Of a stretch of DNA of 64,000 nucleotides, positions 2,242-52,741 are shown piece after piece (the stretch's first letter is position 1; every line of letters starts with the position of its first letter). Under the pieces are notes generated by a model that saw nothing but the letters and a program-made list of their open reading frames with translations, was not told the DNA's origin and did not search any database. Source of the DNA: an uncultured bacterium (GTDB lineage Bacteria > CSSED10-310); NCBI GenBank assembly GCA_964404285.1, contig CAYOJK010000010.1:10303-74302 (forward strand). Direction: 5' to 3'. The translations under genes and the position numbers were made by a program.

Positions 2242-2245
2242 AACC

Positions 2246-6305: not shown

Positions 6306-6343
6306 GCATTCTCAAACCCTACATTTCATTTGATGATAAATAA

Positions 6344-6369
6344 AAAACAGCGGAACAGTCCGCTGTTTT
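6344..6369. terminator. Bidirectional intrinsic terminator between convergent operons
   Basis: AAAACAGCGGA-ACAG-TCCGCTGTTTT: 11-bp stem, 4-nt loop, A/T tracts on both sides. Confidence 0.85.
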
Positions 6370-6422
6370 ATGTTTTGCAAAATAAGGCTGTGTTTTTCCG
6401 GATGACGGCTTAACAATCAAAT

Positions 6423-7796: not shown

Positions 7797-7800
7797 GATT

Positions 7801-9117: not shown

Positions 9118-9128
9118 GTCCCGTCTCC

Positions 9129-12736: not shown

Positions 12737-13472
12737 TAGAAATATCGTTATACAATACGTTGAGCAGAATATAAGTGTTTTTCATGAAAAACGGATCAAA
12801 AACCTTGACAAGCTGAAATTGTCACAAGTTTTAAAACGGAAAAATCCTTATTTATTCAAAGCAAAAAATGTAATGACAGCAGAACAAATTATAAAAGGAT
12901 TGGTTGATGCACATATTTCATCAAACGAGGAAACTATTTTTGGAGATTGGCTTGAGGGACTTGCTATCTTCATCAATGCGGAAGTTTTTAATGGCCGCAA
13001 ATCAGGTATTACGGGTATTGATCTAGAATTTGACTATGAAAACATAAGATATATTGTCACGATAAAATCAGGACCCAATTGGGGTAATAGTTCTCAAATT
13101 CGAAAAATGATATCGGATTTTCGGACTGCGAAAAAAACCTTGAGAACAAGTAATTCGCAACTGAAAGTTGTTGCTGTAAATGGGTGCTGTTATGGCAGAG
13201 ACAACAAGCCGGACAAAGGCTATTATTTTAAGTATTGCGGTCAGCGATTTTGGGAATTTATTTCCGGAGATTCGAATTTGTTTACGGACATCATCGAGCC
13301 GCTGGGGCATGATGCCAAAAAAAAGAATGATGTTTTTTTTGAATCATATTCACAAATGATCAATAAGTTCACGATGGAGTTTTCAAAGGAGTTTTGCAAG
13401 ACAAATGGTGCGATTGATTGGAACAAGCTGGTTTGTTTCAATTCAGCCGAAAACCCAATCCAGACAAGGTAG
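12723..13472 (+). CDS. Type II restriction endonuclease (PmeII/EcoO109I-like family)
   Basis: Overlaps the MTase 3' end by 14 bp. KRKNPYLFKAK, ETIFGDWLEGL and PD-(D/E)xK-like GIDLEF...IKSGPNWGNSSQ motifs. AT-rich. The family call is from recalled motif similarity. Confidence 0.75.
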   Translation: MKKLDRNIVIQYVEQNISVFHEKRIKNLDKLKLSQVLKRKNPYLFKAKNVMTAEQIIKGLVDAHISSNEETIFGDWLEGLAIFINAEVFNGRKSGITGIDLEFDYENIRYIVTIKSGPNWGNSSQIRKMISDFRTAKKTLRTSNSQLKVVAVNGCCYGRDNKPDKGYYFKYCGQRFWEFISGDSNLFTDIIEPLGHDAKKKNDVFFESYSQMINKFTMEFSKEFCKTNGAIDWNKLVCFNSAENPIQTR

Positions 13473-15238: not shown

Positions 15239-16735
15239 TTATACCGTCGTCTGCTTAGGGCGGCGGAATAACCCAACAAAGGACACCAGCGCCCTGCGGG
15301 TTTTGTGCAGAAAAACCCTGACACCCTGCTCCCAAATTTGATCATAGGCGACGATCATGAATTTTCCGAAGGGTTTATTATCGTGATGCCGCAATAGAAA
15401 ACCGACAATAGCAGGATGGTTCAAACGCGTCAGGCGCATCAGCCTGTTTAGAGGTGTTTGTTCGTGCTGTATAAAATCTTTGTTCATACATAACAGATGG
15501 GGAGGAATTTCTTTACCGGATTCTTTATAGTCTTCATACAAACGTGTGCCCGGATAGAGCGTCAGAGAAAAAAGATCGATATTGAACGGTTTTTTAAGGT
15601 TCATCAAAACACGCACCGTTTCGGCGCGATCCTCATCGGTTTCGTATGGGTTATCAACGATCACATCGTATGTTCTGGCATGGAGCTTATTGGTAAAATC
15701 ATCCAGCACTGCGGCGGCTCTTTTAAAATCTGCGATGCTTTCAACACGTTTGAAGACACCTTGACTGATACGCTCGGATCCCGATTGAAGCCCCATTTGG
15801 ATACCTATCAAGCCAGCGTCCACCAACATGGCGATGTTTTCGTGAGTGACTTTTTTAGGATGTAATAACACGCCGAAATAGGCGCCGGTCTTTTTGAATT
15901 CTTGGCAAAACTCTTCGATCCAACCGGCCGGCTTGAAGAAAAAGGTGTCATCCATGATGGCGATAGTGTTCACAAATGGATAGGCAGATAATACCTCACG
16001 AATTTCCGTCATAAAATGCTCAACCGACCTGAATCTGTTGGCCCAAGATGTTCCGAACAAGCGTTTCAGCGCATCGCTGCAACAGTAGGTACAGTGGTAT
16101 GGACATCCACGACCGCTCATGATGATATGACGCTGCTCACTCCACGGAAATCCCTGTCGAAACAGTTCTTGCGTAGCCGGTAAAACAGCGTTTTGAACCA
16201 GTATCGAATGATCTTGGATCGAATTGTCCGGCATCGGCAAAGAATTTAAGTCTTCGATCATTTCCGGTGAATTTTTATACAGAGTACCGTTCACGGAATA
16301 CCAGAAATTATGTAAATCGCCGGGAATATTGCCGGATTGTATCGCCGCCATCAATGGCGCTATGGATTCTTCACCTTCGCCGACACAGACAAAATCCGCA
16401 TATTGCAGACATTCTTCCGGTTCAAGGATGCAGTGAATACCACCCCAAATAATCGGAATATTCAGATTTTGTTTTATGATCTGAGTGACTTGTCGCGCCA
16501 GAGCCAAATGAACCGACATGACATTGATGCCGACAGCCAAACATTTTGATTGTTTTACCCACTGAACAACAGCCTTTTCTTGAGTTACAGTCAACAGATC
16601 GAGCGGTTCACGATTCAACCATAAAACCTGTGTCGGTATATTTTGGGCTCGACAGCAGGCCGATATTTGCCTGATACCAAGATCGATAAATGAATTCTGA
16701 ATCGAAATCAGGGCAAGCATAATAGTTTTAACCAA
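15239..16735 (-). CDS. Cobalamin (B12)-binding radical SAM protein
   Basis: 498 aa. B12-binding domain (IIWGGIHCIL...VGEGE), radical SAM motif RGCPYHCTYC, GLQSGS. True start may be the ATG at 16720. Confidence 0.92.
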   Translation of the reverse strand: MVKTIMLALISIQNSFIDLGIRQISACCRAQNIPTQVLWLNREPLDLLTVTQEKAVVQWVKQSKCLAVGINVMSVHLALARQVTQIIKQNLNIPIIWGGIHCILEPEECLQYADFVCVGEGEESIAPLMAAIQSGNIPGDLHNFWYSVNGTLYKNSPEMIEDLNSLPMPDNSIQDHSILVQNAVLPATQELFRQGFPWSEQRHIIMSGRGCPYHCTYCCSDALKRLFGTSWANRFRSVEHFMTEIREVLSAYPFVNTIAIMDDTFFFKPAGWIEEFCQEFKKTGAYFGVLLHPKKVTHENIAMLVDAGLIGIQMGLQSGSERISQGVFKRVESIADFKRAAAVLDDFTNKLHARTYDVIVDNPYETDEDRAETVRVLMNLKKPFNIDLFSLTLYPGTRLYEDYKESGKEIPPHLLCMNKDFIQHEQTPLNRLMRLTRLNHPAIVGFLLRHHDNKPFGKFMIVAYDQIWEQGVRVFLHKTRRALVSFVGLFRRPKQTTV

Positions 16736-39541: not shown

Positions 39542-39742
39542 TTATCCCCCATGATGAATATGAATCGCACGAACCAAAGCATTATCCGGAACTAAATACG
39601 TATCATATTCGTTTTCGTTTACTAGCTGACCGTTTACAGTAACGATGATCAACACGTAAATGTATCCCATTTCATTTAAGACATCCCTAACCGTCATACC
39701 CGGTTTCCATTCCAGAACATCTCTGTTGTTAATGGTTATCAC
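39542..39742 (-). CDS. thiS: ThiS/MoaD-family ubiquitin-like sulfur carrier protein
   Basis: 66 aa beta-grasp-sized protein ending in IHHGG. GTG start overlaps the thiF stop (GTGA). Confidence 0.88.
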   Translation of the reverse strand: MITINNRDVLEWKPGMTVRDVLNEMGYIYVLIIVTVNGQLVNENEYDTYLVPDNALVRAIHIHHGG

Positions 39743-40344
39743 GTCGCTTTTCCTTCTAGGACCAATTGGATCACGGCATTTGCCTGCATAGCGGCTACAA
39801 TCATCACGCGCGGCGCCGTCATACCTATAGCCATGTCACTGACCATGTCGCCACATAGTACCAAGTTGCCGATTTTCTCTACCTGAAGTGTTCCTGAAGA
39901 GCCATAGCCGGCTAAACCATTTGCCGATATAAGTGGTCTTTGGGGAAATAGGCCGCACCATGTCTGAATTAACCAGATTTTGGATTCCGCTCGATCAAAC
40001 GCTTCAACCAGCATATCTGCTCCATTAAAAACTGAGGCCATGTTATGGCGATCCAAGGTGATATTATGAACATCAAGAGTAACCGATGAGTTAATTGTTT
40101 TGAGGTGTGCAGCCAGAGCTTCAGTTTTGGGCTTACCCAGATCGCTCAGAAAAAAATGTTGGCGGTTCAAATTGGAAGGCTCAACCACATCAAAATCTGC
40201 CAGAATCAGTTTTCCGATACCTGTCCGTGTCAGCATTACGGCCACATTGGAACCCAGGCCCCCGCACCCGGCAATGCCGACACATGCTTTCTGTAACCGT
40301 TCCAATATACCAGGAACATTTCGCTCAAAAATATCTTGGTTCAT
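39739..40344 (-). CDS. thiF: ThiF-family (E1-like) sulfur-carrier adenylyltransferase
   Basis: VGIAGCGGLGSN, ADFDVVEPSNLNRQ, VEAFDRAESK, LCGD...APRV. Confidence 0.9.
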   Translation of the reverse strand: MNQDIFERNVPGILERLQKACVGIAGCGGLGSNVAVMLTRTGIGKLILADFDVVEPSNLNRQHFFLSDLGKPKTEALAAHLKTINSSVTLDVHNITLDRHNMASVFNGADMLVEAFDRAESKIWLIQTWCGLFPQRPLISANGLAGYGSSGTLQVEKIGNLVLCGDMVSDMAIGMTAPRVMIVAAMQANAVIQLVLEGKAT

Positions 40345-40379: not shown

Positions 40380-42380
40380 TCAAGTTAAGGGGGTGTGATG
40401 GTCTTCAAGGACAGCGACAATTTCCGGTAAATCGATACCCAGCTCTTTTAGCCTTGCCTTTGTCGGCACTCCTTGTTGGTCCCAACCCCGTCGTCGATAG
40501 ACCACATCCAGTGTCTTCTCATATTGTTCTTCTCGGTATTCACGAATCAACGCCATTTTTTCTTCAACGGTTTTTCCCTCAGGATCAATGCCTAGGATTT
40601 CCTTTAGTTGCTTGTCATAGCGTTCCATCCGGCTTTCATATTCAACTTTAGTTACTGGCCCGATTCCTCGATACGGCATGTAATCCTCATTTCGTTGTCC
40701 TTTACCAAACATCAAACTCATGATGCGTTGCAGGTTGTGAACACGCGCGCTTTCTTCGAGCATACCGGCTTCATCCAATTTTCGACCCAGCATACCTTCG
40801 ACGAATTTGAAGTAATTTCTGACGTGATCAGGAACTTTCTGGGGTTCGGCTGTGAGCTTGTTATCGGCAGGGGTTACGTCGTTCCAGAGAAGTTTACACA
40901 GTCCATAAAGCCCAAACCACGTTCTCCACAGAGGAAAATAATACAGCGCTTCGGCTTTGTCTTCGTAAGTTGGAATCTCATTATTGACCATATCCATAAA
41001 AATGAGCCATGCTTCATCGTGCTGAGGGCCTTTTACCGCCATGCCATAACCGATTTGCTGGGCAATGGATTCTTTTGTCATGTATTCACTAACTTCCAGA
41101 CCTTTGACTTCCATACCGATATCTTGCAGAAACGCTTTTTGCTCAGTCGTCAGATTCAAGGTTTTACCCCAGTGATTTTTTAACCACCGAATTCCCATCC
41201 CGACATCTACGCCAAAGCCTTCACCGCGAGACATTTGATGCAAAAGCTCCAGCACGGAACCGGACTGACCGAAATGCAAGTCCATACCACCGGTGACAAC
41301 ATCATCAATAACACCGGCTTCATAAGCTTCCATGACAAAAGCGATAGTGGTTGCGGCGGAAATTGTGTCGACACCGTACGTGTCACAATAAAAGTTGAAT
41401 TCAGCGATGGCGTCCATATTGAACAGACCCATGTTAGAGCCACCGGCTGCGGTTTCATATTCCGGTCCTTCTACCGTCACGACATGACCCTTATAAGGGC
41501 CGGTTTTCAACGTGAAATTTTCAATGGTTTTAGCACAGGCCATTGTACAGCCTTTCCAGCATCCGTCCGGCATATTTTGAGTAAAGTATTTTTCTTTCAG
41601 AATACCACCATCGATTTTGTACACTTCTTCATGGGTTCCAAACCGATAATTCATGACAGGCAGCAAATCATAAGCATCCATAACTGCAACAATATTGGTC
41701 GTCCCAATTTCACGCATACGGCACTGATATTGATCGAGATTGGCCATTTCAGAGTTCACCTTCATTCCATAGTTTCTGATCAACATCGGGTTTATCGGAT
41801 TGTTCAAGTCATCAACAATATGCAAAGCGCCGGTCGGGCAAACATAGGCACAACTGGTACAGCCGATACAGTGGGGATCGACTTTTTGAAAAGGCATAGC
41901 AACATGGCGTTCGATTCCACGTCCGGCAAAATCAATAATGTGTTCTTGAGCGAATTCAGCACATGCTCGTATACAGTGTCCACACAATACACAAGATTTG
42001 GGATTTGAATCTGTCAATGGACTTGTAAAACGACTCTCTGATACACCACATTGCCGTGCAATTTTTTTGATTATTGGAACGTCGGGCCAACGTCCTAAAA
42101 GTAGTTCCACCAGCATTTTTCTGTGTTTTTTTACCGTGTCTGTATCTGTGTAAACTTTTATTGGTTTGTTAACAATATAATCACAGCTAGTGACCAGTTC
42201 ACGCTGACCGTCACACTCGATCTCAACCGAACACAGGCGGCAAGCGCCTTCCGGTTTCAGGTCTTTATGACTGCACAGTGTCGGAACAGTGATTTTTTGA
42301 TTGGTTAAAACCTTTAACAGAACAGTTCCAGCGTCAACTTGTATAGGTTTATCATTCACTAAAACATCGATTTTTGCCAT
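40380..42380 (-). CDS. Fusion: NuoG/HydA-like [2Fe-2S] plus 2x[4Fe-4S] module (aa 1-190) joined to aldehyde:ferredoxin oxidoreductase domains 2-3 (aa 191-666)
   Basis: C36/C47/C50/C66 (PTLC...GACRLC...TSC), C130xxC133xxC136xxxC140 and C171xxC174xxC177xxxC181P. Then AOR motifs GTT...LLPVMNY, GCWKGCTMAC, EGPEYET, CDTYGVDTIS, RGEGFG, VKGLE, YYRRGWD-like VYRRRGWDQQGVP. Confidence 0.88.
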   Translation of the reverse strand: MAKIDVLVNDKPIQVDAGTVLLKVLTNQKITVPTLCSHKDLKPEGACRLCSVEIECDGQRELVTSCDYIVNKPIKVYTDTDTVKKHRKMLVELLLGRWPDVPIIKKIARQCGVSESRFTSPLTDSNPKSCVLCGHCIRACAEFAQEHIIDFAGRGIERHVAMPFQKVDPHCIGCTSCAYVCPTGALHIVDDLNNPINPMLIRNYGMKVNSEMANLDQYQCRMREIGTTNIVAVMDAYDLLPVMNYRFGTHEEVYKIDGGILKEKYFTQNMPDGCWKGCTMACAKTIENFTLKTGPYKGHVVTVEGPEYETAAGGSNMGLFNMDAIAEFNFYCDTYGVDTISAATTIAFVMEAYEAGVIDDVVTGGMDLHFGQSGSVLELLHQMSRGEGFGVDVGMGIRWLKNHWGKTLNLTTEQKAFLQDIGMEVKGLEVSEYMTKESIAQQIGYGMAVKGPQHDEAWLIFMDMVNNEIPTYEDKAEALYYFPLWRTWFGLYGLCKLLWNDVTPADNKLTAEPQKVPDHVRNYFKFVEGMLGRKLDEAGMLEESARVHNLQRIMSLMFGKGQRNEDYMPYRGIGPVTKVEYESRMERYDKQLKEILGIDPEGKTVEEKMALIREYREEQYEKTLDVVYRRRGWDQQGVPTKARLKELGIDLPEIVAVLEDHHTPLT

Positions 42381-42382
42381 GA

Positions 42383-44758
42383 TTATTTATCCTCCTTTGT
42401 GTGTGAGGGGCATTGGCCAGTACGGACATGTGTCATGAAATCTTCATAAAAATAACGCAGTCCTGTCAGAATAGGATTCGGAGCCATTTTTCCAAAATGA
42501 CACAAGCTTGTTGCGGCAACGGTCTCAGCGAGCTCTTTAAGAGTTTCCAGATCTTCTATCGATCCTTTTTTGTCTTTAATTTTTGTCAGGATAGCAGCCA
42601 AATGCTGAAGACCTTCACGGCACGGTACACATTTGCCACAGCTTTCACCGGCTAGATATCGTGTGTAACTTTCAATCACTTCAACCATACAGGTTGACTG
42701 ATCTAAAACGGTTATATCGCCGGAGCCTATCGTGCTCCCAGCATCTGTCAAGGATTTGAAATCCAGCGGTATATTCAGTTTTGTCGCTGGTATAAAACCG
42801 CCGGACGGTCCCCCTATCAAAACCGCTTTTATCGATTTTCCTGTCTGAATACCCTTTCCCCAGGTATCCAAAACTGTCTGAAGAGGGGTGCCAAGAGACG
42901 CCTCAGCAAGGCCGGTTTGATTAAGCGCTCCTGAAATCATGAACACTTTTGTGCCGGCAGAAAAACCACTTTGCGGATTTAGAGATTTAAACCAGTCAGC
43001 TCCTTTTCGAACGATCGCTGGAATAGTAACCCATGTTTCTGCGTTGTTCAGAATTGTCGGCGCTTTTTTGAAACCTGATTCCAGGTGATTCAATGAGTTC
43101 AAATGGGGCTCACCCGGTCTTCCGGATATCGCCTCGATAACGGCTGATGGTTCACAATCGACTGCAGAACCGGGACCTCGATGTACAAAAAGATCAAATT
43201 TGAAATCCAATCCATCGATGGTATTACCCAGCCGCCCTTTTAAATACATTTTTTCGACCGCTTTATTCAGCTTATCAATCACTCGATGATATCGCTGATG
43301 GATATAAATATGTCCCTCGCTTGCACCAAGCGCATACGCCCCTAATATCAAGCCTTCGATGAGCCCATAAGGATCGTTTTCAACTATCGTGCTATCAATA
43401 CAGGCCCCGGGGCTGGTTTCCGTGATTGTGCAAATCACAACAGGTTGAACCATTTGGTTTTCTGCAGCAAGACGAGCAGTTTGCCAAGCTTGCCCGACAG
43501 AAATACCATTTCTCTCTCGCGCACGTAGGTTTGAATCTATTATGATTTGTCTTATCTGTTCCGATGTAACCGCTTTGAGGTTTTTTGCCAACCCCTGGCA
43601 AACCTCATCGAGTCTGATATCATCGTTATTCTGCTGTTGATCGGAGCCTGGTTTTCGCAGAGTAACCGATATTTTTCCGGGTAATATTCGTGCATCAGCG
43701 GCTGACGTTTCTGGATATTTGCTTATTTTATCGCGAGGTTCCAATGTGAAGGAGGGATAGAAGGTTGCGATGTGATAGAGATGTGATTTGGGTATACGGA
43801 TCAATTCATTTATTCCGTCGATAACTTCCTTTGAAATGAAGCCTTGTTGGTTTTGGGCATCCAGAAGCATATCCAATATAAATTCTTTTTTATTTTGCCA
43901 TTTAGCGACAATTTGATGGACATCTTGGATTGTGAGAGTTTTGGCTGCATCCGGTACATTGATTTTGAATTTATCAGCAAAGGGTTGCGCAGAAATTGAC
44001 CAAGCAGGTGTAAAATATTTGTTTTTTATGACAAGAGCTTTAATCTTTTTATTACGGAACACGGTTCCCAAGCCACCTCGGCCTGCCTGCTTGATCCGGG
44101 CGACTTTACGTCTCCAGTCATAAAACGAAAAATTCAAAACACCCATCCAAACATGGTCGGCTGCGCTGCCAGCGGTCACCACAGAGATGTTTCGTTTGTC
44201 TTCTTCGTTATCGGCATACATTTCCGTCAATTGTTCACAGATAATGTGGGCGTCCAGCGCTTCATCCGGCGCTTTTTCGATCGTGATCATCTGTTTGGGG
44301 ACATCGATGACGACGATGACTTCATCTTGAGCCTTTCCAGCAACAACCATGGCATCGAAGCCGGCAAATTTCAGGTATGGACCAAAATAGCCGCCGACAT
44401 TGGAATCCATGATGGATTGCGTTGCAGGCGATATCGATGTCACGATTGTTTTACCCGATCCCGGAAACGATGTCGTGCCGCCCAAAGGACCAGATGCTAG
44501 ACAGATCACGTTTTCCGGGCTGTCCCATTTGGTATCTTTGTTAATCTCTTGAAACATCAGCCAAAGGTCAAAACCTTTACCGCCAATCCACAAGTCTTTC
44601 ATTTGCTGGGTAACCGGAAGAATATCAATAGTTTTCTTTCCAAGTTCCACTCTCAGAACCCGGTCTGCATACCCGCGCATCAGCGTTCCAGGCTCATAGG
44701 CAAGTTCAGCTAGAACCGTATGTTTTTGACGCATTTGCTGGATAGGAGAATCCGACAT
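42383..44758 (-). CDS. Fusion: aldehyde:ferredoxin oxidoreductase domain 1 (aa ~30-247), NuoE N-terminal helical domain (aa ~278-342) and NuoF/HydB-like domain (aa ~385-785)
   Basis: AOR-N motifs WIGGKG, SPEN...SGPLGG, SISPAT...DSNVGGYFGPYLKFAGFD, QAGRGGLG.VF..K.IKALVI. NuoE-like LLDAQNQQGFI...IATFYPSFTLEPR. NuoF-like DPYGLIEG, NNAETW, GTKVF.ISG, IGGPSGG, ESCGKCVPCREG...SLCHFG. AAGGAGGT ribosome-binding site upstream. Confidence 0.88.
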   Translation of the reverse strand: MSDSPIQQMRQKHTVLAELAYEPGTLMRGYADRVLRVELGKKTIDILPVTQQMKDLWIGGKGFDLWLMFQEINKDTKWDSPENVICLASGPLGGTTSFPGSGKTIVTSISPATQSIMDSNVGGYFGPYLKFAGFDAMVVAGKAQDEVIVVIDVPKQMITIEKAPDEALDAHIICEQLTEMYADNEEDKRNISVVTAGSAADHVWMGVLNFSFYDWRRKVARIKQAGRGGLGTVFRNKKIKALVIKNKYFTPAWSISAQPFADKFKINVPDAAKTLTIQDVHQIVAKWQNKKEFILDMLLDAQNQQGFISKEVIDGINELIRIPKSHLYHIATFYPSFTLEPRDKISKYPETSAADARILPGKISVTLRKPGSDQQQNNDDIRLDEVCQGLAKNLKAVTSEQIRQIIIDSNLRARERNGISVGQAWQTARLAAENQMVQPVVICTITETSPGACIDSTIVENDPYGLIEGLILGAYALGASEGHIYIHQRYHRVIDKLNKAVEKMYLKGRLGNTIDGLDFKFDLFVHRGPGSAVDCEPSAVIEAISGRPGEPHLNSLNHLESGFKKAPTILNNAETWVTIPAIVRKGADWFKSLNPQSGFSAGTKVFMISGALNQTGLAEASLGTPLQTVLDTWGKGIQTGKSIKAVLIGGPSGGFIPATKLNIPLDFKSLTDAGSTIGSGDITVLDQSTCMVEVIESYTRYLAGESCGKCVPCREGLQHLAAILTKIKDKKGSIEDLETLKELAETVAATSLCHFGKMAPNPILTGLRYFYEDFMTHVRTGQCPSHTKEDK

Positions 44759-44980
44759 GTTTACCTCCTTGGTGAGTTATGCAATGAAAAAAGGATATGA
44801 AGCTTGCTGGTCACTTCAATATCGCCAAAAAAATGCTATTAAAAAAATAGTAATTAGTCAAAGCAGTAAATAGTAAGTATTTCTGAATGAAGGAGTAATT
44901 TTATTCTTGCTTTTTATAATCAAAACACTTTATATTCCCGTAAGTAACTGGGTATCAACTGTTAAAACAAGGGGGAAAAT

Positions 44981-45607
44981 ATGAAAAAGCTATTGTTAAC
45001 ATTGATTTTTATTATCGCGGTTCCCGCATTTGCCGGAACACATTACTTCACGGATGGTATCATTCCGGATGGAATGGAATTCAGCATAGGGTATGTAGAT
45101 ATTGATGATGATGGTTGGCTTGATATCTATTTCATACCAATGCGACTGGAAGCGCCGATCGCTGATAACATAAGTCTATTTGGTGAATTCCAATATAACG
45201 ACTATGATTTTGAATCGACTTTCAGCATTGGCGGTGGCGCCATGTTAAGACTAATTGAAGATGGCACAACACTTCCTTTCAATGTTTCGCTGCGGGGAGC
45301 GCTCTTTTACGGTTTTGAGAAAAAAGAAGATGGCTGGACTTTGATTCCATCGATTTTCAGTTTTGAAGGTCGCGCCATCATTTCTAAACAATTTGACCAC
45401 GCAGTCGATTGGACACCGTACGCCAACTTGGTTTTTTCGCGGAGTAAATACAGCTACAACTTTGGAGGCTATAATGCTAGTGAAAGCGATTCCTACCTGG
45501 ATTTCGTTCTCGGTGTAAAACTCCGATTCGATCAATTCGGTATATTCGCCGAAGGCGTGTTCGGTGATCAAGATGCCTTTGGCATAGGTGGTTCATTCAC
45601 GTTTTAA
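44981..45607 (+). CDS. Putative outer-membrane beta-barrel protein
   Basis: Signal peptide, alternating hydrophobic beta-strands rich in aromatic residues, C-terminal GSFTF with terminal Phe (BAM signal-like). Confidence 0.75.
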   Translation: MKKLLLTLIFIIAVPAFAGTHYFTDGIIPDGMEFSIGYVDIDDDGWLDIYFIPMRLEAPIADNISLFGEFQYNDYDFESTFSIGGGAMLRLIEDGTTLPFNVSLRGALFYGFEKKEDGWTLIPSIFSFEGRAIISKQFDHAVDWTPYANLVFSRSKYSYNFGGYNASESDSYLDFVLGVKLRFDQFGIFAEGVFGDQDAFGIGGSFTF

Positions 45608-46043: not shown

Positions 46044-46454
46044 ATGATTAAAATAACACGGTTTCTGCTAGTAGCTCTGTTGGTCTGCATGGGAAGCATA
46101 TCCGTTTACGGCGCTGATCAGGTAGAAAACACTGAAGAGCTGGAAGCGCCTGAAACGGCGCTTGAATTGTCTGAAGAAGTTGCACCGGATGCGGAAGAAC
46201 CCATTCAGGAAGCTGAACAGCTAATCGAAGATGCTGTTGAGCAAGTGGAAGAACAAAAAAAGGAAGATGTTGTACAAAAGGAACTTGATAAAGCCACCGC
46301 TAAAATAACTGATAAAGCCATTGAGACAGTTGAAGAAACAGTCGAAGATGCTGTTGAGACAGTTGAAGATGCTGTTGAGCAAGTAGAAGAAGCAGTGGAA
46401 GACGCCGTAGAAAAAGCGACTGACAAGGTTGCTGACGAACTTCCCATTAATTGA
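46044..46454 (+). CDS. Small secreted, highly acidic low-complexity protein with EDAVE(T/Q)V repeats
   Basis: Signal peptide, E/D/A/V-rich mature part. GAAGATGCTGTTGAG occurs at 46227, 46344 and 46365 (21-nt tandem unit). Confidence 0.8.
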   Translation: MIKITRFLLVALLVCMGSISVYGADQVENTEELEAPETALELSEEVAPDAEEPIQEAEQLIEDAVEQVEEQKKEDVVQKELDKATAKITDKAIETVEETVEDAVETVEDAVEQVEEAVEDAVEKATDKVADELPIN

Positions 46455-46614: not shown

Positions 46615-47310
46615 TTACGTCTTTATATCCTCAGAAATCTTACCATCTCGTAACGTAATCCGCCGCCGGGCATAAGCGGCGATATCATCTTCATGGGTCA
46701 CCAAGATGATCGTTTGCCCCTCTTTTTCCAGACCGATCAGGATATCCATAATTTCATAGCTTGTTTTCGTGTCCAGATTTCCTGTCGGTTCATCAGCAAG
46801 AATAACCGATGGGTGATTGACAAGAGCCCGGGCTATTGCAACACGCTGCTTTTCACCACCGCTCATCTCGCTCGGCCGGTGATGACCACGGCGACCAAGA
46901 CCAACCTTTTCCAGCATTTTTTCGGCTTGAGAGCGCCGTTCCTTTGGGCTCATCCCTGCATATACCAATGGAACTTCCACGTTTTCGCGAGCTGTCATAC
47001 GTGGTAAAAGGCTGAAGTTTTGAAAAACGAACCCTATACGCTGATTTCGTATCCGACTCAAGGCGCCGTCATCCAATCCGGATATGTTTTGACCGTCAAA
47101 AAGGTAATCACCTGAAGTCGGCTGGTCCAATCCTCCCAATATGTTCATCAATGTCGATTTACCGCTCCCCGACGGCCCCATGATGGCAACGAATTCATTG
47201 TGCTGAACCGTCAAATTGATATCGAATAGAACCTGCAAAGTCAGCGCTCCCATACGGTAAACCTTATTAATATTTTTTAATTCAATAACAGATTTGTTAC
47301 GGTTACTCAT
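46615..47310 (-). CDS. ABC transporter ATP-binding protein, MacB/LolD-type
   Basis: Walker A GPSGSGKST, signature MSGGEKQRVAIARAL, ILADEPTGNLD, VTHE. Likely start 47310 (ORF track start 47325). Confidence 0.95.
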   Translation of the reverse strand: MSNRNKSVIELKNINKVYRMGALTLQVLFDINLTVQHNEFVAIMGPSGSGKSTLMNILGGLDQPTSGDYLFDGQNISGLDDGALSRIRNQRIGFVFQNFSLLPRMTARENVEVPLVYAGMSPKERRSQAEKMLEKVGLGRRGHHRPSEMSGGEKQRVAIARALVNHPSVILADEPTGNLDTKTSYEIMDILIGLEKEGQTIILVTHEDDIAAYARRRITLRDGKISEDIKT

Positions 47311-48547
47311 AACGCAACGCCTCAATCGGGTTCAGGCCGGCAGCTCTTCGAGCCGGGAAAAAGCCGGCCGCCACGCCGACTGTGCCTGCAACCATAACAC
47401 TCATAACCACCGCCCCGAGCGAAAAAATCGTTTTCCAGCCGGCATAGTGAGATATGACGGCTCCTAATGAGAATCCCGTCACGATACCGAAGACACCGCC
47501 AACAAGGCTCAAGACGACGGCTTCCAGAAGAAACTGTGCCAGTATATCGTTTCGGGTGGCGCCTAAAGCACGGCGTATGCCGATTTCGCGAGTGCGTTGA
47601 GTGACGCCGGCCAGCATGATATTCATGATGCCGATACCACCGACTAACAATGATATGGCGGCAATTGCAGCCAACACCATGTTGAAGCGCCGTTGAGTTG
47701 CCAGGGCCTCCCGAAGCAAATCCAGCGGCACAACCATATCGTAATCGTTCACATTGTTATGCATGCGTTTCAAAATCGTATCGATTAAATCTGCTGCCTG
47801 CTTGACAGTGTTTCGATCAGATGCCTGTACGACAAGCTCAGACAGTTCGTGATGAGTGGCTGTATCTGAAATTCGGCGGCCGACAACACTTAACGGCACA
47901 TAGATATCCCGATTGAGATTTCTCATGCTGATCGCAGATGTGCCGGCTTCCGCTAACCGTTTATCTTCCATTATACCAATAACGGAAAACATCGAATCAC
48001 CAATTTGAAACCATTTACCAGAGACTTGCTGCCAGGGCGCTGAGCCGAAGATTTCCTGATGGATTTCCGCTCCAATAACACATACGGGTTGCGCGGTTTC
48101 CATGTCCATTTCGGCTAGAAAACGACCCTTCGCCGAATGAAAGTTCATAACAGCTACATAATCCGGTGTTGCCCCGATTACGGCTGCATTCACCGTGCGG
48201 CCTTCAAAAACGGGTTTTTCCACAAGTTCTTTCACGGGAGCCATCCGCTCGACAAATGGGCAGTTCGCTTCAATTGCCGTCATATCCATCCGCGCTAATC
48301 CTTTTGGATTCTGTTGAATCGCAGTAATCCGTTCGTGTCCGGAAAGGTCAACAGCCTGGATACGGATATTGGTCAATCCTAATTGCGACACCTGCTCCAT
48401 GGCCTGCTGTTTGGCGCCTTCGCCGATAGCCACGCTGGCAATGACGGCGGCCACGCCGAAAATAACGCCCAACATCGTCAAAAACGAGCCCAACTTGTTG
48501 TTGCGCATTTCCAGCAATCCAATTTTGATGGTTTGGCCTAATAGCAT
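47303..48547 (-). CDS. MacB/FtsX-family ABC transporter permease
   Basis: SFLTMLGVIFGVAAVIA, large periplasmic domain, ISLLVGGIGIMNIMLA.VTQRTREIGIRRALGA, FFPARRAA.LNPIEALRYE. Confidence 0.95.
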   Translation of the reverse strand: MLLGQTIKIGLLEMRNNKLGSFLTMLGVIFGVAAVIASVAIGEGAKQQAMEQVSQLGLTNIRIQAVDLSGHERITAIQQNPKGLARMDMTAIEANCPFVERMAPVKELVEKPVFEGRTVNAAVIGATPDYVAVMNFHSAKGRFLAEMDMETAQPVCVIGAEIHQEIFGSAPWQQVSGKWFQIGDSMFSVIGIMEDKRLAEAGTSAISMRNLNRDIYVPLSVVGRRISDTATHHELSELVVQASDRNTVKQAADLIDTILKRMHNNVNDYDMVVPLDLLREALATQRRFNMVLAAIAAISLLVGGIGIMNIMLAGVTQRTREIGIRRALGATRNDILAQFLLEAVVLSLVGGVFGIVTGFSLGAVISHYAGWKTIFSLGAVVMSVMVAGTVGVAAGFFPARRAAGLNPIEALRYE

Positions 48548-48550
48548 TCG

Positions 48551-49894
48551 CTAAAATCCTTTATCGTTTATCCCTGATTCCGGAGCTGTTTTCGCCGCTA
48601 AGCTAAATAAAGCGACTCTCATTCCAGGTTCTAAACCATGAGTAACAACCGCTTCTAAACGATTCCGCGGGCCGAGCTCGATCGGGCGATACGTGAAGCG
48701 ACCGTTTTTATAGACAAACACATGCGAGCCGGACTGGTCATGCCCGATGGCGCTGATCGGAATGGTCAATACATCCGATATACGCTCTTCGACAAATACA
48801 ACCGATACATTCATGCCGGTCCGAAGTCGTTCATCTTGTGTTGTCAGTCGAACAGCTATTTCAAAAACCTTCCCATGAGAATTATCGCCGTCAGCTCCTG
48901 TATAAACTGTTCCACGACTTTGTCCTCTTGGCATCGCCAGCCAACTTATTGAATCGACCACACCTTCCAAGACGGCATTCTCCAGTGCCGGGACGCGTAT
49001 CCAAACCGGTTGGTCTTCAAATACTCTACCTAAATGAGCTTCGGATACCTGTGTCCAAATCATCATTTCAGACATATCCGGTATTTCCAAAAGTGTCGTC
49101 CCAGAACCGACGCTATCCCCAACTTTGAACGGCTCTTTGTTCCACTGGCGTCTGATAATGACAATACCATCCGCCGCGGCATAACCAACGTGATAACCTA
49201 GATACTTCTCATAAAACGCTTTCAAAGCGCTACTTTGCTCATAGTCATGACGAGCAATTTCCGATTCGAGCTCGACACTCTTCCGACGGGATTCATATTC
49301 CAGTTCAGCTCGTTCCAAAGCCAGTCGAGAAGCCGTTTCCGTCAATCGCAATTGTTCCAATCGCGCTTCAGTGTCAAGCACCTCTGTTTCAGATATCAAC
49401 TGTCGAGCAAATCGATCTCGAAGCTGCTCCAGTTCCCGTTCTATGCGTTCGACATTCAGCTTGTCAAAAGCATAAACCGCGGTTGTTTCCTTAAGCGCCT
49501 GTTCCAGGTTGAATTTTTCTTCTGCAAGAGCTTCAACAGCCCGCTCATAATTCGAAAGTGTCTGACGCAGCTTGATCGTTGTCTTTTCGATCAACTGCTC
49601 CATATTTTCAGTATCGAGCCAGAAGACCGGATCACCCTTTCGGACAAATGAGCCTTCCGGCGCCAATCGTGCGATTTTACCTCTTGTCACCGTCGATACT
49701 GTTGCATTGCGAACGGCTTTGAGCAGACCGACATCATCGATCCCAGAAACGAATACACCTTGTTGAACACGCACGGTATCGGAATCAGGTGGCGGAGCCA
49801 GGGGGTGCGGTCGAGAGCAGGCTCCAAGCAACACAAACAGGCCTCCAGCAACCATGTTAAGGACGAAGATGTTTTTATTGGCTTGTCGACTCAT
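48551..49894 (-). CDS. Periplasmic adaptor (MacA/HlyD-family membrane fusion protein) 2, lipoprotein-like
   Basis: Lipobox LLGAC, lipoyl halves (GKIARLAPEGSFVRKGDP, VGDSVGSG..LLEIPD), long alpha-hairpin, beta-barrel and MP domains. Confidence 0.88.
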   Translation of the reverse strand: MSRQANKNIFVLNMVAGGLFVLLGACSRPHPLAPPPDSDTVRVQQGVFVSGIDDVGLLKAVRNATVSTVTRGKIARLAPEGSFVRKGDPVFWLDTENMEQLIEKTTIKLRQTLSNYERAVEALAEEKFNLEQALKETTAVYAFDKLNVERIERELEQLRDRFARQLISETEVLDTEARLEQLRLTETASRLALERAELEYESRRKSVELESEIARHDYEQSSALKAFYEKYLGYHVGYAAADGIVIIRRQWNKEPFKVGDSVGSGTTLLEIPDMSEMMIWTQVSEAHLGRVFEDQPVWIRVPALENAVLEGVVDSISWLAMPRGQSRGTVYTGADGDNSHGKVFEIAVRLTTQDERLRTGMNVSVVFVEERISDVLTIPISAIGHDQSGSHVFVYKNGRFTYRPIELGPRNRLEAVVTHGLEPGMRVALFSLAAKTAPESGINDKGF

Positions 49895-49905
49895 TGTAAA
49901 CTCAA

Positions 49906-51201
49906 TTACAAACTATCAGGACGCGTCAACAAAATTCGTTGTCCTGGCTGAACACCCTCGTGTATTACAATATATTGGGCGTTCCAAGCGCCGGTTTTAA
50001 CCATTTGTTTTTCAGCCCCCCCCAAACCAGCCAAATAGACGATTCGATTTTCACCATCGGTAAAAACAGAGTCTATCGGCACATAAATATTATTATCCGA
50101 TTCGTATAATAACACAGCGACTCTAGCAGTGATTCCCGGACGCAGATCGTCCGGATTATCCGAAATGCGGACACTGACCTCAAAAACCTTACGACCACCG
50201 CCGCTATCTCGATTTCTAGGCTCGCGCGAGGAGGGAGCTTCGTCGGCCAGAGCTGCAATTTTGTGTATGTCTCCGTGTAGTACAAGACTCGGAAAGGCGT
50301 CCAGATATATCTTTGCCGTTTGATTTTCTTTCACACGAGAAATATCGACTTCGTCAACAAAAGCAATGGCCTCTAATTCGGATAGATCAGGGATTTCAAG
50401 AAACGGCTGCCAGGGCCCGACCTGATCGCCGATAGCTACTTTTTCCGTGTTACCTCCACCTTTCCAAACATTTTTATACATAACCATACCGGACGTAGGG
50501 GCTCGTATTATCGCTTCATTCAAGTTTGTTTGAACTTTTGTCAGCTCCGCCTGATTTTGGTCAACTTCGATGGAGGCCGTCGTCACATCCGCTTTTTGAA
50601 GTTCACGTTGAGATTCCCGGTTTTTTAGCGCTTTTTCGAGCGCCAGAGTGGCATTTTCCACTTGAAGAGTCTGGCTTAAAACTTCCAATTCGGCATCATC
50701 GAGCGCTTTTCGGGGAGAAATATCGGCATCGACTAAACGTTGCGTTTTCTCCAGACGTGATCGTGCCGCTGCGAGCTGGGTTCGTTGATGTTCCAAGCGC
50801 GATTTGGCTTCCTCGATCGCTAGAAGGTTCAAGCGGTCTTGTAGCTGAGCGTTCTCTTCAGCCTTGAGCAATTTTTTTTTCGCGATTTCCAACGCATTCA
50901 CCATCTGCTCTACGTCCTCTTCCAACTCCTCGGTTTCAAACCAACAGATCGGTTGGCCTTTTTCGACAATAGAGCCTTCCGGAATGAGATTCGCTATTTT
51001 TCCATACGTGCGTGGCGTGATATTGGTTGAATTGACCGCACGAATTTCACCGATCAGCATCAATTCCGACTTAAACGGGCCTTCCTGGACAGTCACAACG
51101 ATATCACCGGGAATGATGGCGCGTCTGCTGAATTTCAAGCCGATCACAAAAAGCACAACCAAACCGATACCGATCAATACCCACCGTTTTTTATTCGTCA
51201 T
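49906..51201 (-). CDS. Periplasmic adaptor (MacA/HlyD-family membrane fusion protein) 1
   Basis: N-terminal TM anchor, GKIANLIPEGSIVEKGQ, IRAPTSGMV, VDEVDISRVKENQ, LRPGITARV. Likely start 51201 (ORF track start 51243). Confidence 0.9.
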   Translation of the reverse strand: MTNKKRWVLIGIGLVVLFVIGLKFSRRAIIPGDIVVTVQEGPFKSELMLIGEIRAVNSTNITPRTYGKIANLIPEGSIVEKGQPICWFETEELEEDVEQMVNALEIAKKKLLKAEENAQLQDRLNLLAIEEAKSRLEHQRTQLAAARSRLEKTQRLVDADISPRKALDDAELEVLSQTLQVENATLALEKALKNRESQRELQKADVTTASIEVDQNQAELTKVQTNLNEAIIRAPTSGMVMYKNVWKGGGNTEKVAIGDQVGPWQPFLEIPDLSELEAIAFVDEVDISRVKENQTAKIYLDAFPSLVLHGDIHKIAALADEAPSSREPRNRDSGGGRKVFEVSVRISDNPDDLRPGITARVAVLLYESDNNIYVPIDSVFTDGENRIVYLAGLGGAEKQMVKTGAWNAQYIVIHEGVQPGQRILLTRPDSL

Positions 51202-52741
51202 TCCTATTGTCTCCACTGTGTCTATTAATCGGGTTATCTTCATGCTGTGTTGTATATGACTGATCTGAAGAATGAGGATTCAAACGCAGGTTTTCCGGAT
51301 CGAGGTCACGACCTAAAGCATGAATGATCCGTGCTTTTGCCACTGCCAAATCCAAAATATCGGAATAATAATTATTGCCCGCATCGATTAAGTCATCCTG
51401 AGAACGAATCAGGTCCAAATTTCCAGTCAACCCTTCCTGGTAACTCTGGCCTGCCAACTGAAAATTCATTTCAGCAACAGCCAGCGCTTTTTCAGATACT
51501 TTCAACGCCTCCACAAGCGCCTGATAGTGGCGAATTTCATCGCGAACATCTTTTTCAACCGCAAGACCGGCGTTCATCAGGTTGTTTTCCAGTTTTTTCA
51601 ATCGTATCCGAGCCTGATTCCAGTTTTCTCTGTTTGTTCTGTCCCCTAACACATACGAAAATCCAATGCGAATCGAACGGGTATCATCGTCAAATCGAAA
51701 GCTATCACCAAACCTGTCGCTCCGTTGAACAGATTCAGCATTTAAAAGCAAATCCAAAGCCGGCAACCGCTGGTTCATAGCATGGGTCACCGCTATTTCT
51801 GCGCTGAAAATATCGTTTTTCAAAATGCGCAGATCGAGTCTTTGTTCCAAAGCTTCATCGATGGCGGCGTCGAGTGATATTTCTTCAGGAATATGCTCCG
51901 GCGCATCGGCAAACACCAAAGAGCTATCCAATGGAATACTCAGGGTGAGTTTTAATGAATCAACCTGTGATGCGGCAGCCTGTTGAATCCGAATGAGCGT
52001 GGTCTGCTGGCGTGCCAGTTGCAGCTCCGCCTGAGACACATCCATCTGTGCAACCAGCCCTTCCTCTAGCTTGATCTGGGAGTTTTTCAAGTGCACCATA
52101 GCATCTTCTACGCCACGCAAAGCAACCTCTACCAGTTTTTCCTGTTTTAAAGCAGTAAAATACTGAATGATGACATCCAGAATCAGTCGTCTTTGAGCTT
52201 GAACAAATCGAAAACGCGCGTTTTCTCGTGCCAATCGGTTCTGCCTGACCGTAATATGATCACCCCATAAACCGGCATTTTTCAAAAGCGGCTGCTGAAA
52301 TCGTAAACCTAACGTATTTGAATAAATTCCATAATCACTATCGAAATATTCATCGTATCTACTTTCACTCTCATCATAGCGAATTACATTCGAATATAGT
52401 GACAGAGAACCGCCACTCGTGCTGAACTGTTTGCTGATATCCGCGCGAAAGTGATCATTACGGGAAGATTCATCTGTGTTATCACCGTTATCGATCTGAG
52501 TATGGACAGAATCGGCTTCAAAGGACAGGCGTGGGAAATACGGCGCCATTCCAGACCGATAGACCGACTCGTTTAATTCCAGATCCAACCCATCATTCTG
52601 AAAATCGAAATTGTTTTCCAGAGCCAATTTAACGGCATCCGACAATGCCAACGGGCGTGATTGGGATTCGGAAAAACAGCGAGTGGTGAGAAGCTCACAA
52701 ATAAACAATAAGGAAAGAATATACTTTTTGGAGATTTTCAT
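51191..52741 (-). CDS. TolC-family outer membrane efflux protein
   Basis: Signal peptide, LSDAVKLALENN, two OEP repeats (QPLLKNAG...YF.AL; QRLPALDL...SYQEGL...LDL). First gene of the exporter operon. Confidence 0.9.
   Translation of the reverse strand: MKISKKYILSLLFICELLTTRCFSESQSRPLALSDAVKLALENNFDFQNDGLDLELNESVYRSGMAPYFPRLSFEADSVHTQIDNGDNTDESSRNDHFRADISKQFSTSGGSLSLYSNVIRYDESESRYDEYFDSDYGIYSNTLGLRFQQPLLKNAGLWGDHITVRQNRLARENARFRFVQAQRRLILDVIIQYFTALKQEKLVEVALRGVEDAMVHLKNSQIKLEEGLVAQMDVSQAELQLARQQTTLIRIQQAAASQVDSLKLTLSIPLDSSLVFADAPEHIPEEISLDAAIDEALEQRLDLRILKNDIFSAEIAVTHAMNQRLPALDLLLNAESVQRSDRFGDSFRFDDDTRSIRIGFSYVLGDRTNRENWNQARIRLKKLENNLMNAGLAVEKDVRDEIRHYQALVEALKVSEKALAVAEMNFQLAGQSYQEGLTGNLDLIRSQDDLIDAGNNYYSDILDLAVAKARIIHALGRDLDPENLRLNPHSSDQSYTTQHEDNPINRHSGDNRNDE

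Follow-up and report, generated by a model that had tools for sequence, protein, structure and literature searches.

A predicted two-subunit aldehyde oxidoreductase with a split catalytic fold and a reduced Bfu-type module in an uncultured CSSED10-310 bacterium

Two adjacent genes share the halves of one aldehyde oxidoreductase

We analysed a stretch of 64,000 nucleotides (the window, whose numbering is used throughout) from an uncultured bacterium of the candidate division CSSED10-310, corresponding to forward-strand positions 10,303 to 74,302 of contig CAYOJK010000010.1 (GenBank assembly GCA_964404285.1). Analysis of open reading frames (ORFs) identified two adjacent genes on the minus strand, named gene 1 and gene 2 here, which carry between them the parts of an aldehyde oxidoreductase (AOR) of the AOR/tungsten oxidoreductase (WOR) family. 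Domain 1 of the AOR is at the start of gene 1, domains 2-3 are at the end of gene 2, and the parts in between resemble the Bfu core of electron-bifurcating enzymes. The operon gene 1-gene 2-thiF-thiS would encode a two-subunit tungsten- or molybdenum-pyranopterin aldehyde oxidoreductase. We consider it moderately probable that this enzyme assembles in trans and derives from a bifurcating WOR, that it is itself non-bifurcating and probably not NAD-linked, and that what is left of its NuoF-like part serves as a scaffold and as an iron-sulphur (Fe-S) wire. The two genes and their parts, with lengths in amino acids (aa), are as follows.

42383..44758, minus strand: gene 1, 791 aa; AOR domain 1, BfuC/NuoE helical domain and reduced BfuB/NuoF-like domain (ORF analysis, Pfam, NCBIfam, AlphaFold2, and the ratio of non-synonymous to synonymous substitution rates, dN/dS)
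44009..44758, minus strand: AOR (WorL) domain 1, aa 1-250 of gene 1 (AFOR_N; aligns to residues 3-210 of Pyrococcus furiosus AOR, PfAOR; dN/dS 0.065-0.084)
43724..43930, minus strand: BfuC/NuoE N-terminal helical domain, aa ~277-345, without the C1 [2Fe-2S] domain (PF01257; no Cys in the following stretch)
43574..43723, minus strand: deletion scar or linker, aa 346-395 (gap map against residues 347-568 of the long homologue P0017)
42959..43573, minus strand: remnant of the BfuB/NuoF-like FMN/NADH domain, aa 396-600 (degenerate ligand motifs, fold kept)
42386..42958, minus strand: SLBB-like domain and helical B1 (N3-type) [4Fe-4S] domain, aa 601-791 (NADH_4Fe-4S; C-terminal B3/B4 ferredoxin domain absent)
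40380..42380, minus strand: gene 2, 666 aa; BfuA/WorA-type N-terminal Fe-S domain and AOR domains 2-3 (ORF analysis, Pfam, AlphaFold2, Foldseek, dN/dS)
41811..42380, minus strand: BfuA/WorA N-terminal domain, aa 1-190 of gene 2 (matches residues 5-188 of PDB 9mqx_A, E 2.5e-33)
40383..41810, minus strand: AOR (WorL) domains 2-3, aa 191-666 of gene 2 (AFOR_C; [4Fe-4S] ligands, pterin motifs and catalytic residues)

Complementarity of the AOR halves and conservation of the active site

Pfam placed AFOR_N at aa 33-246 of gene 1 (E 2e-47) and AFOR_C at aa 206-649 of gene 2 (E 4e-90). The scan agreed with the domain order given in a preliminary description of this locus, and it bore out the claim made there that the modules keep the order E-F-G (C-B-A). 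The same description had proposed that the two AOR parts are complementary. Aa 1-250 of gene 1 were joined to aa 191-666 of gene 2 and compared with solved structures using HMMER; this gave a single alignment of query positions 29-473 to residues 3-420 of PfAOR (1aor_A), ungapped across the artificial joint (E ~1e-47), and the proposal holds. The split falls at about residue 210 of PfAOR, which we take to be the boundary between domains 1 and 2 of the 1aor structure. Both defining domains of the AOR/WOR family, AFOR_N (IPR013983) and AFOR_C (IPR001203), are encoded, but on two gene products and not on one WorL chain. In structural alignments (Foldseek) the AOR part was 20-23% identical to characterised WORs.

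The residues expected around the cofactor are kept on both polypeptides. In gene 1, K103, N120 and K223 were invariant in 121 of 121 family members and align with Arg76, Asn93 and Arg182 of PfAOR, through which domain 1 contacts the pterin phosphates and the bridging Mg in 1aor. The same 121 of 121 was found in gene 2 for the [4Fe-4S] ligands C274, C278, C282 and C495, for T227, Y308, E309, Y433 and H454, and for D333 and D338 of the CDxxGxD pterin motif; both DxxGxD/C pterin motifs were scored as present. T227, E309, Y433 and H454 are the equivalents of Thr243, Glu313, Tyr427 and His448 (PfAOR numbering), the conserved pterin-site residues of aldehyde-oxidising WORs (PMC13328260). Conserved cofactor contacts on a chain without the remainder of the site are explicable only by assembly of the two products, and we infer that the bis-pterin site forms only in trans, on association of both polypeptides. 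This had been suggested earlier, and the invariance of the residues on both sides is in keeping with it.

Gene 2 carries a WorA-like Fe-S domain

The Bfu core described for bifurcating enzymes consists of BfuC with the C1 [2Fe-2S] cluster, BfuB with the B5 [2Fe-2S] cluster, a site for flavin mononucleotide (FMN) and NAD, the B1 [4Fe-4S] cluster together with a Zn site and the C-terminal B3/B4 clusters, and BfuA with A1, A2, (A3) and A4 (PMC12318220, PMC9304861). In gene 2, Pfam identified Fer2_4 at aa 3-80 and a two-[4Fe-4S] domain at aa 126-186. The ligands of the A1 [2Fe-2S] cluster are C36, C47, C50 and C66, and the two [4Fe-4S] sets (A2/A4) are C130/133/136/140 and C171/174/177/181. All 12 of these cysteines were 100% conserved among 121 sequences. 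On reading the sequence, the motif of the His-ligated A3 cluster was found to be absent from this domain. This is the arrangement of the N-terminal domain of WorA (A1, A2 and A4, no A3), with which aa 1-190 of gene 2 share 30% identity (Foldseek).

Gene 1 carries a reduced Bfu-type module

In gene 1, 2Fe-2S_thioredx (PF01257) matched at aa 281-344 over profile positions 2-65 of 145 only, which is the helical part without the cluster-binding part. Complex1_51K (PF01512) matched at aa 420-580 with 67.9 bits, as against 134-155 bits in relatives, and NADH_4Fe-4S (PF10589) at aa 694-777 (E 1.5e-27). In comparison with P0017, which has the cysteines for C1, B5, B1 and B3/B4 and the FMN/NAD site, gene 1 shows one essentially contiguous deletion (residues 347-568) and a C-terminal truncation of 57 aa (B3/B4). 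The scar at aa 346-395 replaces about 217 aa of the long forms, namely the C1 domain of BfuC and the B5 domain of BfuB, and it is the least conserved segment of gene 1 (53-56% identity to the related locus L007), with a predicted local distance difference test score (pLDDT) below 50 at aa 345-354 and 370-377. As a result gene 1 retains none of the four C1, four B5 and eight B3/B4 cysteines, and all four of B1. The B1 ligands, Cys707/710/713/753, were conserved in all 120 gene 1 homologues examined.

The flavin and nucleotide site is degenerate. On alignment to HydB, NiFe-HydB, WorB and NfnB, the motif GRGGAGF was found to read ARERNGI, NADEGDPGAFMDR to read TITETSPGACIDS (canonical form (N/G)(A/G)DEGDPGAFMDR) and GAGAFVCGESTAL to read GPGSAVDCEPSAV (canonical form GAGAFVCGE(S/E)TAL), and only 8 of the 20 canonical FMN/NADH residues are kept. 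Among columns invariant in the intact long forms, the window protein keeps 85 of 86 in AOR domain 1, against 118 of 200 in the NuoF-like part (p=2e-14). Two short homologues of similar overall divergence, P0016 and P0006, retain 37/43 (p=4e-4) and 34/43 (p=0.007) of the FMN/NADH motif positions, compared with 21/43 here. From these residues, the NADH-handling parts of the module seem to have been lost.

The preliminary description had called the insert a nuoEF-G-like cassette hard-wired to an electron-transfer chain. The module order stands, and so does an Fe-S wire; the complex I affinity does not, nor does a functional NADH-dehydrogenase module, with C1, B5 and B3/B4 deleted and the FMN/NADH motifs degenerate. 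In Foldseek searches with the C-terminal half of gene 1, BfuB chains ranked first at 37-40% identity, ahead of complex I NuoF (27-30%) and of NuoF/FdsB (27-32%). By predicted fold, the inserted module is of the Bfu type (HydCBA/WorCBA) and not of the complex I type. The signatures of complex I NuoEF, a NuoE [2Fe-2S] cluster (N1a) and NuoF FMN/NADH motifs, are missing from gene 1. At the level of sequence the window has the Bfu features B1 and A1/A2/A4, and lacks C1, B5, B3/B4 and the FMN/NAD(H) site. The nuoF, HoxU, NuoG and AOR models of NCBIfam all matched below their cutoffs (nuoF with 325 bits for a cutoff of 559), and NCBIfam has no dedicated model for the product of either gene.

Both genes are under purifying selection and keep their folds

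Substitution rates were estimated against two loci with the same synteny as the window, L006 (95% identical) and L007 (83% identical). The dN/dS values were 0.11-0.19 for gene 1 and 0.03-0.055 for gene 2 overall; by part, AOR domains 2-3 gave 0.03-0.04, the BfuA domain 0.04-0.14 and the NuoF-like part 0.10-0.25, next to the value listed above for domain 1. Both genes are under purifying selection, and the NuoF-like part is relaxed yet clearly constrained.

The chains were modelled with AlphaFold2, each folded alone. The gene 1 model had a pLDDT of 84 and a predicted template-modelling score of 0.71, with low confidence at both junctions (aa 249-263 and 345-377). Its NuoF-like half superposed on BfuB chains with a root mean square deviation (RMSD) of 1.6-2.1 Å; WorB (9mqx_B) was among the best matches (1.6 Å, 40% identity). 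The gene 2 model (pLDDT 79, low only near the cluster loops) matched formaldehyde oxidoreductase (FOR), WorL of AmWOR1 and PfAOR over about 470 columns, and WorA (9mqx_A) over its first ~200 residues (Foldseek).

Operon organisation

The remaining elements of the operon are listed below.

44833..44861, minus strand: candidate sigma-70-like promoter TTGACT-17-TAGCAT upstream of gene 1 (weak; consensus scan only)
44764..44770, minus strand: Shine-Dalgarno sequence AAGGAGG, 5 nt before the ATG of gene 1 (sequence reading)
42391..42397, minus strand: Shine-Dalgarno sequence AAGGAGG of gene 2, within the last codons of gene 1 (sequence reading)
39739..40344, minus strand: thiF/moeB-type adenylyltransferase, 201 aa (NF006395, 242 bits, cutoff 159; PF00899; same position in related operons)
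39542..39742, minus strand: thiS/moaD-type sulphur carrier, 66 aa, ending in GG and overlapping thiF by 4 nt (ORF analysis)

The candidate promoter is the sole minus-strand consensus match within the intergenic region of 222 nt. The junction of the genes reads AAG GAG GAT AAA TAA tc ATG, so that the TAA of gene 1 (42383-42385) and the ATG of gene 2 (42378-42380) are separated by 2 nt; this indicates, from the sequence, translational coupling. Since Shine-Dalgarno sites precede both ATGs, these are two real genes. A ThiS-family gene of 65-66 aa was present at the matching position in related loci, and the order gene 1-gene 2-thiF-thiS recurs on contigs of unrelated samples. By analogy, thiF and thiS most likely serve sulphur transfer to the pterin cofactor, a role suggested for thiF and worX beside other WOR genes (PMC13328260). 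Rfam gave no match at the gathering threshold over the window and none at E<=1 in 44700-45050, and hence neither a riboswitch for the molybdenum or tungsten cofactor nor any different RNA element ahead of the operon.

The split AOR belongs to a large family with several gene arrangements

The split had appeared at first to be an event private to this gene. It turned out to belong to a large family. The best 120 homologues of gene 1 all combine AFOR_N with NuoE/NuoF domains, and the best 120 homologues of gene 2, about 665 aa long and 63-84% identical, all carry Fer2_4, Fer4 and AFOR_C. We scanned GTDB, with one genome per species, for two peptides specific to the family, GGKG[FY]DLW and LNFSF[YW]DW, and obtained at least 600 pattern matches, 570 of which were confirmed as relatives. 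As the two patterns share the confirmed matches, the family comprises at least a few hundred loci. The best 80 GTDB loci are all in metagenome-assembled genomes, several of them on contigs of 2-3.7 Mb. Those closest to the window are from CSSED10-310 (64-69%); the others come from Fermentibacteria, Aminicenantes, Cloacimonadota, Krumholzibacteriota, Sumerlaeota, Elusimicrobia, KSB1, Myxococcota, Eisenbacteria, Syntrophomonadaceae, Fibrobacteraceae, Acidobacteriota and further groups. No cultured host was present among the named protein-search matches and the best 80 of at least 570 GTDB matches, and an isolate is possible among the rest.

ORF analysis of the GTDB loci, with the domain content of the three-gene form checked by Pfam, revealed three main arrangements. 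In the three-gene form an AFOR_N-complete BfuC (~430 aa) is followed by a separate canonical BfuB (~627 aa) and by a fusion of the BfuA N-terminal domain with AFOR_C (~665 aa). In the long two-gene form, of which P0017 is an example, C and B are fused (~1065 aa). The short two-gene forms, the window's among them, have a gene 1 of 685-830 aa, and a few intermediates also exist. Among 68 scorable loci we counted 33 three-gene, 24 long, 8 short and 3 intermediate forms, which makes the three-gene form with its separate BfuB the commonest. The split itself is constant across the arrangements, with domain 1 on the C subunit and domains 2-3 on the A subunit.

All sites are intact in 74 of 86 long homologues, including 20/20 FMN/NADH motif residues, and the long and three-gene relatives keep 4/4 C1 cysteines and all the cofactor sites of WorB and WorC. 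Judged by these motifs the majority forms meet the definition of a Bfu enzyme, and the three-gene and long forms are predicted to couple aldehyde oxidation to concurrent NAD+ and ferredoxin reduction without a WorS polyferredoxin. No WorS-like gene was found in the operon of the window or in the related operons examined.

On a neighbour-joining tree, the three-gene and long forms made up a compact, motif-perfect core and the short forms lay on long branches in several groups, with a series of increasing decay from P0005-7 through P0003 and P0004 to P0002 and the window. Two sister lineages are without the FMN domain entirely. In L083, gene 1 (5339-7396, 685 aa) has its FMN-binding domain deleted and keeps the BfuC C1, SLBB and B1 domains (Pfam); in L067, which groups with it, gene 1 (5830-8028, 732 aa) is also without FMN/NADH motifs. 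From its domain content, the deletion in L083 appears to be a second, independent route to the loss of NAD(H) chemistry. Within CSSED10-310 itself, L009 has a fully equipped three-gene form and L010 a short form; this contrast, together with the intermixing of three-gene and long forms on the tree, points to repeated fusion and reduction events or to horizontal transfer. The insertion of a single cassette into an AOR gene, as first proposed, is a reasonable origin for the split, and the data equally allow fission plus rearrangement.

In some genomes an ordinary one-piece AOR gene adjoins the split operon (L026, 11540-13026; L086, 3897-5672), and so the two architectures coexist. The gene 1 frame of L065 (3628-8529) runs about 790 aa upstream of AFOR_N, which may be an extra N-terminal fusion or a stop-poor frame. 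In a Krumholzibacteria genome (L001/L002, 1-4154, minus strand), a NuoF-like gene is divergent from the split-AOR operon; the formate-dehydrogenase-like catalytic subunit beside it was called as 353 aa and 540 aa, and rather than a true split this is probably a selenocysteine UGA taken for a stop codon.

Comparison with characterised enzymes

Among characterised systems, WorABCSL of Acetomicrobium mobile (PDB 9mqx, Class IV WOR, PMC12318220) comes nearest; in it an AOR-family catalytic unit is likewise combined with Bfu A, B and C modules. Unlike the split family, WorABCSL has an intact WorL, five separate subunits and the WorS polyferredoxin, with a (WorSL)3 nanowire on one WorABC. The split family has no WorS, and its WorL is cut into two pieces that are joined covalently to subunits C and A; in the window's enzyme C1, B5 and B3/B4 are missing too, and the FMN/NADH site is degenerate. 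With two subunits and no WorS, its operon falls outside Class IV (WorLSABC, five subunits). With their halves joined, the two genes agree with PfAOR (1aor, Class I) and P. furiosus FOR (1b25) in three-domain fold, [4Fe-4S] ligands, pterin motifs and catalytic Glu/His/Tyr/Thr; unlike the window's enzyme, PfAOR and FOR are single chains without extra Fe-S or NuoEF-like domains.

In Type 1 Bfu enzymes (HydABC [FeFe]-hydrogenase, NfnABC and Fdh-Bfu) the catalytic domain is fused to BfuA, and the published Wor-Bfu is of Type 2, with separate S and L subunits (PMC9304861). The split family follows the Type 1 logic and, as in no described Type 1 enzyme, has a further catalytic part riding on BfuC. 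NuoEFG and the NAD-dependent formate dehydrogenase FdsABG show the same E-F-G order, and in FdsA a NuoG-like N-terminus is fused to a pterin catalytic domain in a manner analogous to gene 2. Short forms also resemble these enzymes in being without the bifurcation-specific B3/B4 and B5; however, FMN and NADH are bound, and the NuoE [2Fe-2S] cluster is present, in NuoEFG and FdsABG, and gene 1 of the window has neither signature. AorABC of Aromatoleum aromaticum (8c0z, Class III) is, like the window's enzyme, a multi-subunit AOR with an added electron-transfer module; unlike it, AorABC has a polyferredoxin (AorA), an FAD subunit unrelated to NuoF (AorC) and an intact catalytic subunit.

A 2026 classification of WORs covered 4,064 sequences and required IPR013983 and IPR001203 in one protein (PMC13328260). 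By this requirement none of its 92 clades and five classes can include the split family. A split or fused WorL has no mention in that classification, in the Bfu family paper, in the WorABCSL paper or in a 2025 tungsten-enzyme review, and no description of the family was found in the open full-text literature, subscription journals being outside our reach. The family is apparently undescribed, in line with the earlier view that the architecture is uncharacterised. Database product names are piecemeal, such as '(2Fe-2S)-binding protein', 'AFOR N-terminal domain-containing protein', 'NADH oxidoreductase subunit E/F' and 'NAD(P)H-dependent oxidoreductase subunit E'.

Proposed mechanism and alternative explanations

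We propose the following working model. The BfuC-helical/BfuB-like remnant of gene 1 would bind the BfuA domain of gene 2 as in Bfu and complex I modules, giving a heterodimer, and these contacts would bring AOR domain 1 onto domains 2-3 and close the bis-pterin site. The aldehyde would be oxidised at W (or Mo), and electrons would pass to the AOR [4Fe-4S] cluster, then through the two [4Fe-4S] clusters and the one [2Fe-2S] cluster of the BfuA domain to B1. In the full-length relatives FMN would receive them from B1 and bifurcation would follow, with NAD+ as the acceptor on one branch and ferredoxin, by way of C1 and B3/B4, on the other. The reduced enzyme of the window may instead hand them from B1 or from a BfuA cluster to a one-electron acceptor, for instance ferredoxin, and the NuoF-like remnant would persist mainly as a clamp and cluster carrier. 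The aldehyde reaction could run in either direction in vivo. The ancestor would have been a bifurcating aldehyde oxidoreductase of the Bfu type (HydABC/WorABC-like), from which the present form may have arisen by deletion of the ~217 aa (C1 and B5), C-terminal truncation (B3/B4) and decay of the FMN/NADH motifs. As the internal deletion spans the boundary of C and B, it could alone have fused two genes of a three-gene ancestor.

Several observations weigh against this model. No gene for a ferredoxin or other acceptor was found in the operon or the 64-kb window, and we know of no precedent for B1 as an electron exit point. The list of FMN/NADH contact residues was based on the complex I Nqo1/NuoF structures and on motif conservation, and not taken from a ligand-bound structure. 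Residue loss in the window protein is not enriched in these motifs (21/43 retained, against 97/157 outside; Fisher p=0.16), and by its sequence the NuoF-like domain has drifted as a whole; what argues for ligand loss is consequently the identity of the changed residues and the comparison with other short forms. NN..T (LNNAET) and a single Glu from the GE(E/S)T motif also survive in the pocket; with the intact fold and the purifying selection, a remodelled flavin or nucleotide site is conceivable. The argument for assembly in trans is one of residue conservation only. Finally, the neighbour-joining tree was midpoint-rooted and is prone to long-branch effects, for which reason the direction and number of the reductions depend mainly on domain parsimony.

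Retained pocket residues, non-enriched losses, the kept fold and the selection on the NuoF-like part would all be expected if this domain had a remodelled pocket to which flavin and NAD(P)H still bind, making the enzyme a simple non-bifurcating aldehyde:NAD(P)+ oxidoreductase comparable to Class III WORs or NuoEFG-type modules. Other short forms (the P0016, P0006 and P0038 group) keep 17-19 of the 20 residues and are very plausibly NAD(P)-linked. We nevertheless regard this as unlikely, if worth serious thought, for the window. In the GRGGAGF loop, A, E and R stand in place of three of its four glycines; in NADEG, Thr has taken the place of both Asn and Asp; Ala occupies the position of the motif aromatic (F/Y), with Cys for the next Gly, and the conserved Lys of xKW has become Ala; the PF01512 score is half that of relatives, and motif retention is significantly below that of the other short forms. 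The sister lineages that delete the FMN domain show in addition that the family tolerates the loss of FMN/NAD function. A different exit is conceivable, in which electrons leave for ferredoxin from the BfuA clusters (A1 or A2/A4), and the BfuC/B remnant including B1 is redox-silent and a structural clamp for AOR domain 1. The disappearance of the bifurcation-specific clusters, the drift of the NuoF-like domain (118 of 200 formerly invariant columns kept) and the tighter constraint on the BfuA domain with its 12 invariant cysteines agree with such a route. The four B1 cysteines, however, occur in all 120 gene 1 homologues, even in the most degenerate forms and L083, which suggests that the B1 cluster is still needed, possibly structurally; we judge this route to be unlikely as well.

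BamB, a benzoyl-CoA reductase, belongs to the same superfamily, and the catalytic unit might similarly act on a substrate other than an aldehyde. Its AOR part is far from every characterised WOR, as the structural identities and the E value to PfAOR given above indicate, the aldehyde activity of the split family is a prediction from sequence alone, and most WOR clades are, according to the classification, without a known physiological substrate (PMC13328260). We hold this to be improbable, since the equivalents of Thr243, Glu313, Tyr427 and His448 are invariant, BamB ranks below AOR, FOR and WOR1 in sequence and fold searches, and the operon is without CoA-ligase or ring-reduction genes. That the split is an artefact, whether a frameshift, a chimera or a decaying pseudogene, deserves practically no credence, and nothing was found in its favour. 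An assembly chimera, which would have undone the preliminary description, and a frameshift are excluded by the identical junction of the two genes, with thiF and thiS after it, in dozens of independent assemblies that come from different samples and phyla and include contigs of 2.0-3.7 Mb, and by the canonical Shine-Dalgarno sites of both genes. A pseudogene is excluded by the low dN/dS (0.03-0.19) and by the intactness of every AOR and BfuA cofactor ligand.

Significance of the split family

We tentatively suggest, at somewhat less than even confidence, that the split-WorL enzymes represent an unrecognised sixth architectural class of tungsten oxidoreductases, widespread in uncultured anaerobes, and that in the reduced lineages the module has lost its flavin chemistry and been kept as a clamp. 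If this is true, the pterin site is built across two polypeptides within the Bfu core with no polyferredoxin between them, and the flavin-less module cannot be discarded because it now holds the catalytic halves together, a natural example of a ratchet from function to scaffold. Tungsten oxidoreductases, like bifurcating enzymes of the Bfu type, are the subject of current structural work. WorABCSL is the sole characterised combination of a WOR with Bfu, and the split family would show a second, more direct coupling of a pterin site to a bifurcating core. The family also reveals where the AOR fold is split in nature.

Published surveys that require both AOR domains in one protein cannot have counted these enzymes. 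Together with the piecemeal annotation, it is likely that AOR/WOR inventories misjudge the aldehyde/acid redox capacity of anaerobes of the candidate phyla. The graded series from the full Bfu module, through forms without the bifurcation domains, to those with a decayed or deleted flavin domain offers a comparative set for the parts needed in bifurcation, NAD linkage and assembly.

Genomic surroundings

The synteny shared with L007 continues to either side of the split-AOR operon. No redox partner, tungstate/molybdate transporter, aldehyde-producing pathway or tRNA was found in the 64-kb window, the rest of which is ordinary chromosome and includes FeoAB, SMC, TopA, DprA, a XerC/D-type recombinase, HslU, DapAB, PEPCK, an efflux cluster and a type II restriction-modification pair. 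The efflux cluster (46615-52741, minus strand), which is syntenic with L007, consists of a MacB-type ABC ATPase, an FtsX-type permease, two HlyD/YknX-type adaptors and an OEP/TolC gene. The restriction-modification pair (11885-13472, plus strand) looks complete; the gene for an N4/N6 DNA methylase comes first and that for a type II restriction endonuclease of the EcoO109I type (PF14511, E 2e-92) second. At 31-3007 (minus strand), FeoB has as its neighbour a gene in which a FeoA domain is fused to an iron-dependent repressor of the DtxR type. A circularly permuted ATP-grasp gene was observed beside a TldD/PmbA peptidase pair (6423-10523, minus strand), and two B12-binding radical SAM genes at 3486-5021 (plus strand) and 15239-16735 (minus strand); together these could be a peptide-modification cluster. 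The ORF at 46044-46454 (plus strand), to which no family was assigned, encodes a protein of 136 aa with a signal-peptide-like N-terminus and a very acidic body of repeated VE(D/E)AVE units.

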